From Escherichia phage a20, in sequence record OQ067374.1: DNA of 64,000 bases; one strand, written 5' to 3'. The notes below the pieces were generated by a model. That model searched no databases. It was given only the letters and a program-made list of their open reading frames with translations, and was not told the DNA's origin. Positions 3,029 to 45,028 of this stretch are shown here, in pieces. The position numbers and the translations under genes are program-made. Each line of letters starts with the position of its first letter. The stretch's first letter is position 1.

Positions 3029-3661
3029 TCACAGTACGTTAGTTACAAGGGTAATGATTTCTTTGGACACATTAGGGAAGTCAATGTAAGTATATTTACC
3101 ACCGATCTTAATCTTAACATCATTTTCAAGAGAAGTAAACAGCTTTGATTCAGTTTCTGACATGTTGTATGCAAAGATTCTAAGAGCGCCATCTCGACGA
3201 ATTTCGATCTGACGAATACCTAGAACTCGTTTTGCAAATCGAACTTCCAAGTTACTACGGTTTTCACCAATTTCTTTAACTTCAACTTTATCTTTAATAT
3301 TTTCAAAAACAAAGTTTGCTAGTTCATGCATTTCAGGAGTAACTCCACGTGCTTTTCTAGTGTTACGTTTCTGAAGAAGTTCTGGAGCATTTTCTTGGGC
3401 AAAGAGGTCTGCAGCTTTTTGGATAATATCCATTGCTTCGCCTGTTGCTATAAGTCCATCACCGGATTTTTCGACTAAACCTTTCTTAATCAATACACCA
3501 ATGTTAGAGTTAACAACCGATGCATTGTATTCCGCTTCTAGAGCTTCACGGACATTGGCAGCAGTGGTGAAGTTGTTCTTAATGATATAAACCATTATTG
3601 CAGCAGTTTTTTCATTCAGAGCGTTTTCAGAAGCTTTGATGATGTAAGTAACTTTAGACAT
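3029..3661 (-). CDS. motA: middle-transcription activator MotA
   Basis: 210 aa; MSKVTYIIKASENALNEKTAAIMVYIIKNNFTTAANVRE...NSNIGVLIKKGLVEKSGDGLI; T4 MotA is 211 aa with the same N-terminus; synteny between asiA and gene 52. Confidence 0.85.
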   Translation of the reverse strand: MSKVTYIIKASENALNEKTAAIMVYIIKNNFTTAANVREALEAEYNASVVNSNIGVLIKKGLVEKSGDGLIATGEAMDIIQKAADLFAQENAPELLQKRNTRKARGVTPEMHELANFVFENIKDKVEVKEIGENRSNLEVRFAKRVLGIRQIEIRRDGALRIFAYNMSETESKLFTSLENDVKIKIGGKYTYIDFPNVSKEIITLVTNVL

Positions 3662-3848: not shown

Positions 3849-5174
3849 TCAAAGTGCCTCCAAGTCTTTAGTGTACTCTGTCACAACATCAGTAGACTTC
3901 CAATACTCATTTTCTTCTTTCTTAGCTTTAGCTTCTTCTGCTAGTTTACGTGCTTCGTCGGAAGTGATATGGAAGATGTTAAGACCTACCAGTTTATCGA
4001 CATGTTCTTTATACATTTCGATTTGTGCTAGCTCTTCAGTCAAAGCTTTACGAGTCTTGTCCTGAATCACAATTTCACCACTGATAACTTTTTTGATGAA
4101 GTGTGCCTTAGCAAAAGCAAGTTTAAATGCTTTTTCAGATTCAAGGATTTTGTTGTCAATACGTTTCTGAACGTAAGTCTTACGGACTTCAACAAAATCT
4201 TTGATTAAGTCCACTACGTTATCGTAGACAGCTAATTTACCCTTTTCATTAATCACTGTGATGTTTTGTGAACGACGTTCGATGAGACTAAAATCTTTCA
4301 TGATTTTTTCATGACGTAGCTCTTCATCATCAGGAAGCGAGTACTCTTTACGGAACTTCACCTTAAACCCAAAGCCGTGTTCACCACAATCATCTTCCCA
4401 AGAGATTAGACCTTTGTCTTCCAACGGGTCAAGAACCTTACTCACATACGTTTCACGGTCGAATTTATATGGGATTTCAGTTATCTGCATTTGAGTGCGA
4501 GATGTGAACTTATATGTTCCGTGAATCTCATAACGCCCATCAACTTCATGTACTTCGCCACGGAATTCCGGGAATTCAACTTTTGGCTTAGTGACATTTT
4601 TACCTTGAAGAGCTTGTAATACAGCCTTTTTTACCGATTTAAAACTATGAGGCAGAATATTTGTTGCGTAACCGGTTGCAATACCAGAAACACCATTCAA
4701 AAGAACTGTCGGAATAATAGGAAGATAGAATTTTGGTGGAATGTGTTCTTTATCTTCATGAGCTGGAGCATATTCAGTATCTTTATATACGTTATAGAAA
4801 TTTTTACTTACACGAGCAAAAATATAACGAGATGCTGCAGCTTTTTGGACTGTTCTAGAACCAAAGTTGCCCTGGCCATCTAACAGTGGATAGTTGTTGT
4901 TCCATGTGTTAGCCATTAATGCACCTGCATCTTGTGCAGAAGATTCACCGTGGTGATAACCTAAATCTGCAACACCGCCTGCAATTGACGCAAGTTTATG
5001 AAATTTTTCTTTATTACCACGAGCCAAATCTAATGCACGATGAACCACAAAACGTTGAACCGGTTTAAATCCATCAATCATGTTTGGGATTGCACGGTTT
5101 TCAACGGTGTACATCGCATATGCTAAGGCTTCGTTATCAATAATACTTTTTAGATTACGAGAATTCAATTGCAT
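3849..5174 (-). CDS. 52: DNA topoisomerase II medium subunit (GyrA-like, gp52)
   Basis: 441 aa; ...AYAMYTVENRAIPNMIDGFKPVQRFVVHRAL...; catalytic-Tyr region typical of type IIA topoisomerase A subunit; T4 gp52 is 442 aa. Confidence 0.93.
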   Translation of the reverse strand: MQLNSRNLKSIIDNEALAYAMYTVENRAIPNMIDGFKPVQRFVVHRALDLARGNKEKFHKLASIAGGVADLGYHHGESSAQDAGALMANTWNNNYPLLDGQGNFGSRTVQKAAASRYIFARVSKNFYNVYKDTEYAPAHEDKEHIPPKFYLPIIPTVLLNGVSGIATGYATNILPHSFKSVKKAVLQALQGKNVTKPKVEFPEFRGEVHEVDGRYEIHGTYKFTSRTQMQITEIPYKFDRETYVSKVLDPLEDKGLISWEDDCGEHGFGFKVKFRKEYSLPDDEELRHEKIMKDFSLIERRSQNITVINEKGKLAVYDNVVDLIKDFVEVRKTYVQKRIDNKILESEKAFKLAFAKAHFIKKVISGEIVIQDKTRKALTEELAQIEMYKEHVDKLVGLNIFHITSDEARKLAEEAKAKKEENEYWKSTDVVTEYTKDLEAL

Positions 5175-29900: not shown

Positions 29901-29959
29901 AATGTTTTCCTCTTGGTTGGTGTAAGTACATCATATCATGCCTAGAGGAAGATGTAAAC

Positions 29960-40336: not shown

Positions 40337-43048
40337 TCAAAAATCGAACATATCGAACAGAGATGCTTTCTTCTCGTAATCGAGTTTCGCTGCTGATGTG
40401 AATCCTTCAAGTGGTTTAATAAATGTCTTCTCAAGGAGAACAGTGTAGTCCATCCAATGAAGTACGTCGTCTTTAATTAAATCTGTGATTTCAGTGCCAG
40501 AAGGCCATGCGATACATTTATCACCGAATGGGTTTCCTTCACGTAAAGGCAGAACATATACTTTTTCACCTTCTACAACTTGCGGTGCATCGATATTACC
40601 TTTGATAGCCCGGTTATATGTCAGAATTCCACGAATATGGAACGGACATTTGGGACCAGGGAATCCACCTACGTCATATTTAGCAATGTTATTCGCAGAA
40701 GATACCGACGCGATGCTAATATAATTCAATTGGCGGAATTCTTTTTCAAACTCTTTAAAATATTCTTGTAATGATTCTTCACCTTCTTGAAGCATACGAC
40801 GAATACATTCTTTAAGAGCTTTCTGTACTGCTTTAGGAGTCGAAGATTTCTGTGTTTCGAGACCCATGATTTTAAGCTTAGGTTCAGCGTATCTGGTTCC
40901 TTCCATATCCCACACGTTTAATGCATAACGTTTCTTACCAGTCCAGAATCCACCAATACCTTTAGAACCGAGCGGAGGACCAGCGATAGCTTCTCGGTCC
41001 ATGAACATCAAATGTTGCTTATTATTCATGTATTCGCACATTTCACGGAAACCTCTATCAATAGCAGGTTCCATACGTTCACGAGCGAACTTATCTAAGA
41101 AGTCTACCCAATGGTTGGTATCACGGAATTTAGATTCACCAACCTTATCGATAATTTTATCAGCAGATACGTAAATAGAGTCTGTATCACCATATAGAAC
41201 GAAAGCTTCACCTTCTGTACCACAAACTTCATTCAGATATTCATTAACTTTACGTTCAATCCACTGTAAAGCCATTTGACCAAATGTTGTGATTGCAGTA
41301 GCATTACGCAAATCATAATAACGGAACCAAACGTTGCCAAGTGCACCATAAAGTGAGTTGATAAGCAATTTACGGTTAATCTGTGCAGTCATACCTGCAA
41401 CTTCAGTACGTTGAGCTCTAAACAACATTTCATTAAGAGATTTAGCAGACAACTTTTTAATCTTTTCTTTAATCTCATCACTGAAGTCGAAACGATAATC
41501 AACATCTAATGGTTCGTCAACAGAAAGATTAGGATTATGCAATGCCTCTTTAATTATTTCACCATTACGTTGAGCTGCAAGCATGTAACCTTTATGTTCT
41601 TTACGTTGATTAAAGACCTTAGTGATTTCAGTTGGAACTACACCATCACGGTCTTTATAATACATCATGCCGTTAGGAGAGCAACTGTACACATCTGAAG
41701 GACGTTCAGCGATTGCGTTAATATAATCATGCAGTGGAGCTACTTTAAACGTTCCTGCTATTGTTTCCGGGCTAATATTCACTTGGCGAATAATACTTGG
41801 ATACAGAGATGTAAGGTCGAAACTCATTACATATTTGTATCGATTTGGAATAGGTTCCTTAACAAAAGCGCCAGGATAAGGTTGAACCGGGTGAGAACGA
41901 CCTTGTGGAATCACCTTGTTCTGCTCTTTAAGGCTATTAAAAATAATAGCATCCCATGTTTTAATTGGACTGAACACAGATTGAATCTGAATTTTAGCAT
42001 AATAACCCATGTCCAAGCTCAAGTTAATGAACTGGCGTTTAGCATCAATTTGCAATACACGATATACGTCGATGATGTTATAGCTTATATATCGTTGATG
42101 ATTACTTTCGCGAAGTTTAGAAATAGGACCGTCATATTTCAGTTTACCAACGTTCAATTCAAATTCTGAAATGTAATCCAGAGAATACGACGGTTGATTG
42201 GTAAAAGAGAATTTTTTGTAAAGGTCAATGTAATCAAGAACAGAGATACCGAACAATGTAATGATTTCACGAGAACCATACATGTTTTCGATAACTTTAA
42301 CACGAGTTTTACGATGCGGTGATAAACGTTTCGCAGTAGATTCGCCAAAAATATTCTTGATTCGGTTATACACATATGGAATATCAAATGACTCAACGTT
42401 CCATCCAGTCAAAATGACAGGAGTTTTCTGTTGCCAGAAGTTGAGATATTCCATCAACAATTCTTTTTCGTTATCGAACGGCATATAAATGATTTTATCG
42501 ATAATTTCAGATGGAACTTCATCACCGCCTTGTTCTTGAAGCTTAGCAGCGATTTCAATAGACCATTCTTCTACATTACCATACGGAGAATTCAATAGAT
42601 CAAATACGTAGAACCTGTCGTCAATTGAGTCATAATGGGTGATAGCATCAATCGGATGTTTTGCTTGTGACGGCTCAGGGAACCCATCCGGAGATGTTAC
42701 TTCGATGTCGAAGTTAGCCACACGAATTTTTGTATGGTCGTATTTGATTTCATAGTTATAAGTGTCAGACAAATACGCCAATTTGAAATCGTCCATGCCA
42801 AGTGCTTCAAGTCCGATATCTTCCATGCGTTTAATCCATTGGGAGGCATCACGCATATTAGCGAACAACTTACGAGTACACGGTTTACCGTAGATATCGA
42901 AATATTTCGTAGCCTGACTTTCTGGACAATGAGCAAACAGTGATGGTTTATATTCTACTTCACGAGTACGTTCACGGCCATTAGAATCGATGTAACGTTC
43001 AAAAATTGAATCACCAATCTGTTCAACCGTTAAGTAAAATTCTTTCAT
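40337..43048 (-). CDS. 43: family-B DNA polymerase with 3'-5' exonuclease (gp43), RB69-type
   Basis: 903 aa; exo motifs FDIEV / YNIIDV, polymerase motifs DxxSLYPS, K(x3)NSxYG, YGDTDS; N-terminus MKEFYLTVEQIGDSIFERYIDSNGRERTREV. Confidence 0.97.
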   Translation of the reverse strand: MKEFYLTVEQIGDSIFERYIDSNGRERTREVEYKPSLFAHCPESQATKYFDIYGKPCTRKLFANMRDASQWIKRMEDIGLEALGMDDFKLAYLSDTYNYEIKYDHTKIRVANFDIEVTSPDGFPEPSQAKHPIDAITHYDSIDDRFYVFDLLNSPYGNVEEWSIEIAAKLQEQGGDEVPSEIIDKIIYMPFDNEKELLMEYLNFWQQKTPVILTGWNVESFDIPYVYNRIKNIFGESTAKRLSPHRKTRVKVIENMYGSREIITLFGISVLDYIDLYKKFSFTNQPSYSLDYISEFELNVGKLKYDGPISKLRESNHQRYISYNIIDVYRVLQIDAKRQFINLSLDMGYYAKIQIQSVFSPIKTWDAIIFNSLKEQNKVIPQGRSHPVQPYPGAFVKEPIPNRYKYVMSFDLTSLYPSIIRQVNISPETIAGTFKVAPLHDYINAIAERPSDVYSCSPNGMMYYKDRDGVVPTEITKVFNQRKEHKGYMLAAQRNGEIIKEALHNPNLSVDEPLDVDYRFDFSDEIKEKIKKLSAKSLNEMLFRAQRTEVAGMTAQINRKLLINSLYGALGNVWFRYYDLRNATAITTFGQMALQWIERKVNEYLNEVCGTEGEAFVLYGDTDSIYVSADKIIDKVGESKFRDTNHWVDFLDKFARERMEPAIDRGFREMCEYMNNKQHLMFMDREAIAGPPLGSKGIGGFWTGKKRYALNVWDMEGTRYAEPKLKIMGLETQKSSTPKAVQKALKECIRRMLQEGEESLQEYFKEFEKEFRQLNYISIASVSSANNIAKYDVGGFPGPKCPFHIRGILTYNRAIKGNIDAPQVVEGEKVYVLPLREGNPFGDKCIAWPSGTEITDLIKDDVLHWMDYTVLLEKTFIKPLEGFTSAAKLDYEKKASLFDMFDF

Positions 43049-43078
43049 TTAATTTCCTTTAGACGAGTTATTGTCTTT
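43049..43078 (-). promoter_or_regulatory. candidate gp43 translational operator: small hairpin with 8-nt loop AAUAACUC immediately 5' of the gene 43 SD
   Basis: mRNA sense agac-aauaacuc-gucu then aaaGGAaauuaa AUG; T4-type gp43 autogenously represses translation via such a hairpin. Confidence 0.5.
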
Positions 43079-43094
43079 TGTTTGTTGATGAACT

Positions 43095-43125
43095 TATTAT
43101 ACTCCAAATGGGACCGAAGTCCCAT
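43095..43125 (-). terminator. UUCG-loop hairpin between regA and gene 43, overlapping a TATAAT -10-like element
   Basis: atgggac-cgaa-gtcccat; adjacent plus-strand attata. Confidence 0.5.
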
Positions 43126-43129
43126 TGCT

Positions 43130-43498
43130 TTAATTACCAATTGTATATTTTGCTTTCAAAGTCCAGTCATCTTTCTGTTTAAAAGAGATAACACGAAAGT
43201 TATTAGTCAGGCCAAACAGATCTTCACGAGCAGAGTCTTCAATAACAATCAAGCCCCAGTCTTCAAGCAACTGGGCAATCGAATCACGTCGCTGATAGTC
43301 TTCACCGTCAATATCAACCTGACGTCCATCCATACGCAACATTTCTTTAAAGTGGACGATGTAATATTTACCTTGCTTTTGGAGTATATGACAGGACTGA
43401 TAAAGGACTTTATCCTTGTTATTAGCGATGCCCATACGGGTCAAAGTCTCTTTGACTTTCAGAAAATCTTCAGGGTTCTTCAATTTAATTTCGATCAT
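43130..43498 (-). CDS. regA: translational repressor RegA
   Basis: 122 aa from MIEIKLKNPEDFLKVKETLTRMGIANNKDKVLYQSCHILQKQGKYYIVHFKEMLRMDGRQV...; recognised as T4 RegA. Confidence 0.9.
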   Translation of the reverse strand: MIEIKLKNPEDFLKVKETLTRMGIANNKDKVLYQSCHILQKQGKYYIVHFKEMLRMDGRQVDIDGEDYQRRDSIAQLLEDWGLIVIEDSAREDLFGLTNNFRVISFKQKDDWTLKAKYTIGN

Positions 43499-43500
43499 TT

Positions 43501-44064
43501 TTACCATTCCAATGCTAATTTTTTAAATTGTTTTTGTTCTTTCACATTTTTTGTAACTTCTTTGAGAAACTCATCAGTGACCATGGCCTTCAGTTCTTTA
43601 AGGACTATTGGCAACTTGTTATTTTTTTCAAGGAGCCGCTTATACTCGGTAGCATCATTCATGTTGATTGTGTAATGTTTCATCAACAGTTTGATAACTA
43701 GTAACTCTGAAGTGTCTTCAACTAGTTTAGCCCATTTAGAGAATCGACGACCACGCGGAATTGCCGCCATCATATAGTTGAAGTGTGCTTCATCACTTAA
43801 TTCAGAACCGACTAAGTTCATCATGTAAACAGCTGGCATACATTCCGGGAACTGGGATAATGAGTTCTCAACCATAAATTTTGAGTAGTCGACCTGAGCA
43901 ATTGACATAGATTTCTTTTCATTAATAGCATTAATGATTTTAAAGAATTCATTCTCAGGTTTTTCTTTAAACATATCAGCACATTTTTGAATCGCATCAG
44001 CGTCATTAGACTTCCATGCAATTTGGTGCTCGTTAAGCCGGACGTCATCATCGAATAAGTTCAT
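43501..44064 (-). CDS. 62: clamp-loader small subunit (gp62)
   Basis: 187 aa, same length as T4 gp62; synteny between regA and 44. Confidence 0.8.
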
Positions 44065-44065
44065 A

Positions 44066-45028
44066 TTATTTCCAAGTCAGTTCACAAGTCAATTGAAGAA
44101 GCATATACATAACATGTAATTCAATATTACTAGCTAGTCCATGAAACTTATTATTTTCGCCTGCAATTTCGTAAAGCGAAATAATACTTTTACCAGGTGC
44201 AACTTGGTCATAACATTCTGAAACTAATTTATCGATGAACCATGAATAATCTGCAGCATATTTTGGAGCTAATGCACGAAGTTGTTTGATATCTTTGTTC
44301 TTCATTGCTTCGATAACATCAGAGACTGTGCCACGGTCATTAGTTACGATAGACAGAATACCTGCATCGAGAACACCTTTAGACGAGTACTGGTCTAATT
44401 GTCCAATTGTACGACGAAAGTCCGGGAAGTTCTTTTTAACCAGAGCTGCAACAACTTTCATATCAGCGATTTCGATATTTTCGTTCTTACAGATTTCAAC
44501 CATACGATGAATCATTTTCTTCATCATCGAGATTTTATCTTCTTCGGTTGGACGTCCGAATTCGATAACTCGACAACGACTACGTAATGGTTCAATAATT
44601 CCATCGATGTTGTTAGCAGTAATAATAATAGAACAGTTACTAGAGAATTCTTCCATGAATGTACGAAGGTGCCGTTGTGATTCAGCAAGGCCACTACGGT
44701 CAAATTCATCGATAACGATAACTTTCGGCTTGCCTTCCATTGAGACTGAACGAGCGAATGCAGTTAACGGACCACGCACAAAATCAATCTTACAATCAGA
44801 ACCGTTGACGAACATCATTTCAGCGTTGATATCGTTACATAATGCTTTTGCTACGGTTGTTTTACCTGTACCAGGAGAAGGAGAGTGCAAAATAATATGA
44901 GGAAGTTTTCCTTTAGATACTAAAGACTTGAATGTTTCATGGTCATACGCAGGCAGAATACATTCGTCAATGGAAGAAGGACGATATTTCTGTTCTAGAA
45001 TGTGTTCTTTGGAATTGATAGTAATCAT
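44066..45028 (-). CDS. 44: clamp-loader ATPase subunit (gp44, AAA+)
   Basis: 320 aa; Walker [11 protein letters not shown], Walker [12 protein letters not shown] motif (LRSRC). Confidence 0.92.

Follow-up and report, generated by a model that had tools for sequence, protein, structure and literature searches.

The 81-nt spacer between regA and gene 43 of Escherichia phage a20 is, with high probability, a compact control region in which a terminator-like hairpin, a promoter and an operator are lined up ahead of the DNA polymerase gene, all of them elements known from phages T4 and RB69. The window, i.e. the whole stretch of 64,000 nucleotides that was analysed (sequence record OQ067374.1), comes from a Mosigvirus, the region being placed by Megablast in this genus of RB69-like T4-type coliphages (98.4-99% identity among the matches listed). 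Read in mRNA sense from the regA stop codon onward, the region runs TAA-AGC-AAUGGGAC-[UUCG]-GUCCCAUU-U-GGAG-UAUAAU, and continues downstream of the hexamer as AAGUUCAUCAACAAACAAA-AGAC-AAUAACUC-GUCU-AA-AGGA-AAUUAA-AUG. The features are collected in Table 1.

The spacer is identical to that of RB69 at 81 of 81 nt. RegA agrees with its RB69 counterpart at 125 of 125 residues and gp43 at 902 of 903, the sole difference being V446I, and at the nucleotide level gene 43 differs from RB69 at 68 of 2712 positions and regA at 10 of 378 (2.5-2.6%). The a20 gp43 further matches RB69 polymerase chains in the PDB over its full length (e.g. 1CLQ, 1IG9 and 1WAF). An 87-nt stretch is present at 99% identity or more in 144 of the 157 phage records with a match, as against only 11 of 162 for the surrounding 701 nt; among these closely related records, the comparison is suggestive of a non-coding regA-43 spacer that is more conserved than its coding flanks.

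The control region of gene 43 is already known, and the gap is one of annotation rather than of knowledge. The gp43 operator is annotated in none of the GenBank records of RB69, T4, SA79RD, F2 and ESCO47, and neither promoters nor terminators are marked at the regA-43 region in the T4 record AF158101. The five phage records could each gain three features, namely the operator, a P43-type promoter and a C(UUCG)G terminator-like hairpin. In this case, a textbook regulatory RNA was correctly recognised from raw sequence alone.

Table 1. Coordinates of the features of the a20 window that are considered in the text
Feature	Position	Strand	Basis or remark
Gene 43, family B DNA polymerase gp43, 903 aa	40337-43048	minus	full-length match to RB69 polymerase
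regA CDS	43130-43507	minus	ORF list; stop TAA at 43132-43130
Gene 62	43501-44064	minus	ORF list
Gene 44	44066-45028	minus	ORF list
regA-43 spacer, 81 nt	43049-43129	minus (mRNA sense)	
C(UUCG)G hairpin AAUGGGAC-UUCG-GUCCCAUU, 8 bp	43126-43107	minus	fold, covariation, terminator annotation in a relative
GGAG, candidate RegB/S1 cleavage motif on read-through transcripts	43102-43105	minus	inferred
TATAAT, predicted -10 of a P43-type middle promoter	43101-43096	minus	homology to T4 P43, conservation
Predicted start of the gene 43 monocistronic mRNA	43089-43091	minus	homology with T4 P43
gp43 translational operator hairpin (by identity with RB69), 16 nt, 4-bp stem and 8-nt loop	43076-43061	minus	identical to RB69
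Operator, 5' arm AGAC	43076-43073	minus	
Operator, loop AAUAACUC	43072-43065	minus	
Operator, 3' arm GUCU	43064-43061	minus	
Operator, 3' single-stranded part (Shine-Dalgarno AGGA 43058-43055, ATG 43048-43046)	43046-43060	minus	sequence and fold
T holin	235-894	plus	
asiA, co-activator/anti-sigma factor	895-1167	minus	Pfam AsiA 2.4e-32
motA, middle-promoter activator	3029-3661	minus	Pfam MotA_activ 1.1e-39, MotCF 2.2e-8
Topoisomerase II subunit, gene 52-like	3849-5174	minus	DNA_topoisoIV domain

The operator hairpin in the gene 43 leader

Directly 5' to the gene 43 Shine-Dalgarno, where the initial annotation had pointed to an agac/gucu stem around an 8-nt loop and read it as a candidate gp43 operator, we found precisely this hairpin, and the reading itself also held. 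Two nucleotides (AA) separate the stem from the Shine-Dalgarno and 12 nt separate it from the AUG, and the Shine-Dalgarno/start segment is unpaired in the predicted fold of the leader alone. Folded by itself the hairpin reaches -3.2 kcal/mol (z = -5.7 against shuffles), and its stem, together with that of the hairpin further upstream, is contained in the minimum free energy structure of the whole region. The exact 10-mer CAATAACTCG occurs a single time in the 64 kb. An Rfam search of positions 42000-44500 at E<=10 returned only chance matches of snoRNA type and no family for the operator.

The gp43 proteins of T4 and RB69 are both autogenous translational repressors, whose RNA operator consists of a hairpin and of sequence overlapping the ribosome-binding site (PMC3014915). 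The hairpin measures 18 nt in T4 and 16 nt in RB69, and a loop with a -UAAC- core is common to both (PMC3014915; also PMC535899). The spacer of a20 is identical to that of RB69, for which the 16-nt operator and the repression exerted through it by RB69 gp43 have been published (reviewed in PMC3014915, citing Wang 1997 and Petrov & Karam 2002). Reading the a20 hairpin as an operator is accordingly correct: judged by this identity, it represents the translational operator of RB69 gene 43, an element already characterised. With the RNA sequence the same and the protein differing from its RB69 counterpart by one residue, gp43 would be expected to repress its own translation in a20 as well.

A 4-bp stem is by itself weak evidence for such an element, and the support comes from the unique 10-mer, the identity of the loop with those of T4 and RB69, and the covariation of the stem. 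For the last of these we used a comparative set of 80 loci with RegA homologues from IMG/VR, in 47 of which gene 43 lies downstream. Of the eight loop positions, 1-3 and 5-7 do not vary among 19 distinct hairpin sequences; C stands at position 8 with a single exception, and A, C or U occurs at position 4. The initial annotation had staked its reading on conservation of the loop in relatives, and conserved it is. The stem occurs in these sequences as AGAC/GUCU, AGUC/GACU, AGGC/GUCU, AGCCU/GGGCU, AGACU/GGUCU, AGUCC/GGACU and GGUCU/GGACC, with double changes at four of the five pairs. Stem cells are paired in 85% of cases against 18-44% in slid registers, double changes number 27 cells, and the observed values were reached by none of 500 shuffles. 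The same stem was recovered by RNAalifold from an independent MAFFT alignment. In the variant phages F2 and ESCO47, substitutions and indels are confined to the spacers, and both hairpins, the GGAG and the TATAAT are intact.

A covariance model (R1) was built to span the hairpin to the AUG. It has a single match in the 64-kb window, at 39.4 bits with the next best at 16.3, but because the a20 sequence is itself among the training sequences this top match is partly built in, and what counts as evidence is that off-target matches are lacking. Across 221 kb of related loci the model gave 42 matches, all of them at gene 43 leaders and ending at start codons. No match was obtained in L024, in L044-L047 or in 35 more distant RegA loci, an absence that agrees with the report that some T4-related polymerases have no autoregulation (PMC3014915).

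The combination of a near-invariant 8-nt loop with a covarying stem points to sequence-specific recognition rather than mere folding. It speaks directly to the alternative that the AGAC/GUCU hairpin folds by mere chance, or represents a generic structure near the ribosome-binding site that modulates translation but binds no protein, to which the short stem, its folding energy, a z of only -1.8 within the 46-nt leader and the lack of an Rfam match for the region would lend themselves. That alternative is, however, already contradicted by the comparative data, and we consider it extremely improbable: the loop is the T4/RB69 operator loop, the spacer is the experimentally studied RB69 spacer, and the element is confined to gene 43 leaders.

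The operators of the loci L004-L043 also display some natural diversity. Their loops are AAUAACUC, AAUCACUC, AAUUACUC and AAUAACUG, and none carries the SELEX 'major variant' loop AGCAACCU that was raised in the 2010 review. The operators fall into two classes, one with a 4-bp stem and the Shine-Dalgarno 1-5 nt downstream, the other with a 5-bp stem closed by U.G or C-G, which is followed by AUAAAC or AUAGGAAAAAC and then by the Shine-Dalgarno. The loop variants (AAU[A/C/U]ACUC and AAUAACUG) and the covarying stems constitute an unexploited natural data set on gp43-RNA specificity, and an Rfam family, none of which exists for the operator, could be built up from the more than 40 phages whose stems covary.

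The tetraloop hairpin behind regA

Three nucleotides past the regA stop codon lies a second hairpin with the core GGGAC-UUCG-GUCCC, which folds at -11.7 kcal/mol (z = -3.2) and has four G-C pairs in its stem. The initial annotation had noted a 7-bp UUCG hairpin about 30 nt upstream of the operator, overlapping a TATAAT element. Its presence and distance are borne out, with 30 nt between it and the operator stem. The stem, though, has eight pairs rather than seven, and the overlap does not exist, the hexamer beginning 5 nt downstream after an intervening U-GGAG.

In 44 of the 47 loci with gene 43 downstream, L043 among them with a weak version, a G+C-rich tetraloop hairpin comes after the stop codon of the upstream gene. 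The tetraloop is UUCG, UACG, GAAA, UUAC or UCCG, and what precedes the hairpin is either regA itself or, in many phages, a small additional ORF. Double changes occur at seven of the eight stem pairs; the hairpins of the relatives were chosen by a hairpin-finding script, by which the percentage paired is biased upward, and their position is fixed by the stop codon and the TATAAT. Just 5' of the hairpin lies a conserved (U)AAGCAA (AAGCAAU at 43124-43130, minus strand), which is kept at the equivalent place in most loci even where the upstream gene differs (regA or the inserted ORF).

In OL960576, from a near-identical phage, the homologous hairpin is annotated as a rho-independent terminator. 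The tail 3' of the a20 stem is UGGAGUAU, with at most three U after the G+C core and with AUUU at the base of the stem ahead of the GGAG; the tails of the relatives have 4-6 U. A terminator scan that called sites with at least five T in eight did not call the mRNA strand at 43107-43126. A call that it made on the plus strand was rejected as a by-product of the palindrome, no gene ending there. Work on T4 by RNA-seq describes one MotA-dependent region from 35,662 to 27,197, which includes genes 45, 44/62 and 43 and would fit with transcription reading through the homologous hairpin of T4. The a20 hairpin is thus probably a partial terminator and/or a 3' stabiliser of the 45-44-62-regA transcripts, with an efficiency of termination that is uncertain because the U-tract is short. 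Of the two roles that the initial annotation had offered for the hairpin, the termination of regA transcripts can be retained in the form of a terminator-like or stabilising element, given the OL960576 annotation and the short U-tract, while the definition of the gene 43 mRNA 5' end passes to the TATAAT promoter, as suggested by homology to T4 P43.

Hairpins of this type are a recurrent feature of the window. About nine strong C(UUCG)G hairpins occur on the coding strand, most of them just after stop codons and most with U runs (minus strand, 3773-3756, 5303-5278, 7640-7625, 12266-12249, 14947-14932, 24375-24354, 29985-29964, 43126-43107 and 50499-50480), and the long U runs downstream of the other copies set them apart from the regA-43 copy. 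The plus strand has two weak UUCG stems that lack the C-G closing pair. Counted over both strands, UUCG stems of at least five pairs number 13 as against 3.7 expected from mononucleotide shuffles. Two of the hairpins, 50499-50480 and 14947-14932, are followed by a U run and then by a consensus middle promoter GCTTTA-N-TAnAAT (50499-50452 and 14947-14905); these examples suggest that a hairpin followed by a middle promoter is a recurring cassette, of which the regA-43 copy would be a compressed version.

In many T4-type relatives a further small ORF of about 50-75 aa, in many cases with ...IEI* as its end, is inserted between regA and the hairpin (L005-L007, L009-L015, L019, L020, L023, L031, L035, L037-L042 and L068; L039 has two). 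It is translationally coupled to the regA stop through TAATATG or TAATG. RB69, T4 and a20 (43107-43132) have no such insertion. The module of hairpin, promoter and operator is in every case found next to gene 43, in the relatives with the inserted ORF too.

The TATAAT hexamer, the GGAG and the start of the gene 43 mRNA

The motif GTATAAT is invariant in a 12-phage MAFFT alignment spanning several genera, and its flanks vary. The T4 middle promoter P43 has its start at 29933 (Hinton 2010, PMC2988021, Table 1; Guild et al. 1988; Hsu & Karam 1990), which in the T4 record is a C that follows the homologous TATAAT at 5 nt and precedes the operator stem by 4 nt. This position of the mapped T4 start identifies the hexamer as the -10 element of P43. 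By the same homology, transcription in a20 is predicted to start 5-7 nt after the -10, with a 5' UTR of about 41-43 nt. The corresponding site of OL960576 is annotated as T4-middle-promoter-like, 'GCTT(N13-15)TATAAT with 1 mismatch'.

The genes for both MotA and AsiA are present in the window, and consensus middle-promoter motifs are about five-fold enriched in it (observed 18, expected 3.7; 15 of the 18 lie on the gene strand). A pattern search of the window for GCTT-N13-15-TAnAAT returned these 18 sites elsewhere and did not match the gene 43 promoter site. The best candidate for a MotA box there is GACTTCG, which has a 13-nt spacer and an ACTT core instead of GCTT and lies within the sequence of the tetraloop hairpin, whose DNA spans the -30 region of the promoter for gene 43. 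It agrees at 4 of 7 positions with the MotA box (a/t)(a/t)(a/t)TGCTT(t/c)A, whose consensus placement is 12 +/- 1 bp upstream of the -10. T4 P43 has 17 nt between GCTT and TATAAT, more than the usual 13-15, and in some relatives the hairpin loop is without any CTT.

An RNA-level alternative should be weighed here, namely that the TATAAT is no promoter element at all, gene 43 being expressed by read-through only and the hexamer being kept as part of a RegB/S1 or RegA site. The weak MotA box and the want of an acceptable sigma-70 -35 hexamer accord with it, as does the resemblance of the A/U-rich sequences to the RB69 RegA SELEX ligands AAUAAUAAUAA (PMC3014915). Against this, the T4 middle-promoter start is mapped 5 nt after the homologous hexamer, GTATAAT is invariant across genera amid variable flanks, the two activators are encoded in the window, and the stringent requirement of middle promoters is reported to be an excellent -10, with deviant MotA boxes, ACTT cores among them, being tolerated and functional (PMC2988021). 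We regard the read-through-only account as very unlikely and favour a P43-type middle promoter.

Other kinds of promoter were set aside. For a stand-alone sigma-70 promoter, the -35 candidates at 17-18 nt (TGGGAC or ATGGGA) match, by eye, at about 2 of 6 positions, and a sigma-70 promoter scan called none on the mRNA strand at the regA-43 spacer. The sequence around the hexamer is TATAATAA, which is unlike the T4 late promoter consensus TATAAATA, and a late promoter was likewise rejected. On the opposite strand, 43124-43149 (plus) reads ATTGCTTTA-N11-TATATT and resembles a middle promoter with a MotA box directed antisense into regA. Its TATATT corresponds, in reverse complement, to the conserved K-Y-T codons of regA and may be a coding coincidence; in T4 the spacing is shorter by one base.

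The GGAG that separates the tetraloop hairpin from the -10 makes RegB/S1 processing of read-through transcripts possible. Taken further, it allows the hairpin to be viewed mainly as an element of RNA processing and stability, with RegB/S1 cutting the GGAG, the stem-loop capping the 3' end of the regA mRNA, and the 5' end of the gene 43 mRNA falling about 13 nt upstream of the P43 start. The motif holds this place in about three-quarters of the relatives with the module, and GGAGUAUAAUA, the A/U-rich stretch that follows it, matches the RegB consensus GG*AGRAYARAA (taken from PMC3014915) at 5 of 7 positions. A U-tract too short for a strong intrinsic terminator, and T4 data compatible with transcription from upstream running through, fit the same picture. 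The remaining relatives, several lineages among them, nevertheless have GUAG, AGAG, GGGG, UGGG, GGAU or others in its stead, most middle transcripts with a GGAG resist RegB (PMC3014915), and our literature search turned up no report of cleavage at the regA-43 GGAG. On balance this processing account is conceivable but on the unlikely side, and we prefer the partial terminator followed by a promoter.

A rather unlikely fusion of these readings would give the hairpin module three roles: terminator or 3' cap as RNA, degenerate P43 MotA box as DNA by way of its (A/G)CTTC loop, and, through the GGAG, RegB/S1 site. Were this true, read-through and promoter-initiated gene 43 mRNAs would share nearly one and the same operator-bearing 5' leader.

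With the partial terminator, the middle promoter and the operator in place, the predicted course of events would be as follows. Transcripts from upstream promoters, which cover 45-44-62-regA, would meet the very stable C(UUCG)G hairpin 3 nt past the regA stop, which probably acts as a partial intrinsic terminator and/or as a barrier to exonucleases at their 3' end. RNA polymerase modified by AsiA and MotA would start the gene 43 mRNA about 5-7 nt after the TATAAT, as in T4 P43, and the resulting leader of about 42 nt would present AGAC-AAUAACUC-GUCU 2 nt before the Shine-Dalgarno. When in excess over its DNA substrates, gp43 would bind the hairpin along with the adjacent single-stranded segment of the ribosome-binding site, thereby occluding this site and repressing its own translation. 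Repression through the operator was shown experimentally for RB69, with an identical sequence and a near-identical protein (PMC3014915).

Comparison with known systems

The closest parallel is the RB69 gene 43 operator itself, with which a20 shares the 16-nt hairpin, the ribosome-binding site, the whole spacer and all but one residue of the repressor. Nothing in the element differs; a20 is merely a different Mosigvirus isolate, with flanking genes at about 97.5% nucleotide identity. The T4 gene 43 operator has the same loop AAUAACUC, the same position in the leader just 5' of the Shine-Dalgarno, along with the same mechanism of autogenous repression, if a20 gp43 acts as predicted, but its hairpin, AGCCU-AAUAACUC-GGGCU, has a 5-bp stem closed by U.G at 18 nt from the AUG, as against 4 bp and 12 nt in a20. 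This T4 operator was reportedly the subject of Andrake et al. (1988) and Tuerk et al. (1990), and is said to have been the target of the first SELEX experiment, that of Tuerk & Gold (1990). The T4 and RB69 gp43 proteins differ in RNA specificity (PMC535899).

The promoter compares with T4 P43 in its homologous GGAGTATAAT, placed at the same distance downstream from the hairpin and upstream from the operator, and in the presence of MotA and AsiA. It differs from it in that the core of the putative a20 MotA box is ACTT (as in T4 P46) with a spacing of N15, whereas T4 P43 has GCTT and N17, and in that the a20 start is placed by homology. The tetraloop hairpin, for its part, resembles the intercistronic C(UUCG)G hairpins of T4 in its tetraloop, its G+C-rich stem and its place directly behind a stop codon. 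Unlike these, the regA-43 copy of a20 combines a short U-tract with an overlap onto a promoter's -30 region. The T4 intercistronic hairpins were reportedly described by Tuerk et al. (1988).

A further precedent for the compact layout is offered by the PeSL cassettes of phages RB49 and phi1, which likewise bring together a stop codon, a stem-loop terminator, a promoter and a Shine-Dalgarno in an intergenic stretch (Arbiol et al. 2010, PMC2839356). The PeSL stem-loop may overlap the -35, and PeSL-like sequences are known from around gene 43 in some T4-type phages (PMC2839356). In the relatives with an inserted ORF we searched for a second copy of the hairpin after regA, as in the flanking repeats of PeSL type, and found none. 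The promoters of PeSLs are strong early ones of the sigma-70 type, and the cassettes lie beside variable ORFans (PMC2839356), whereas the regA-43 module, by homology, combines a middle-type promoter with a protein-binding operator and is situated in the conserved replication core.
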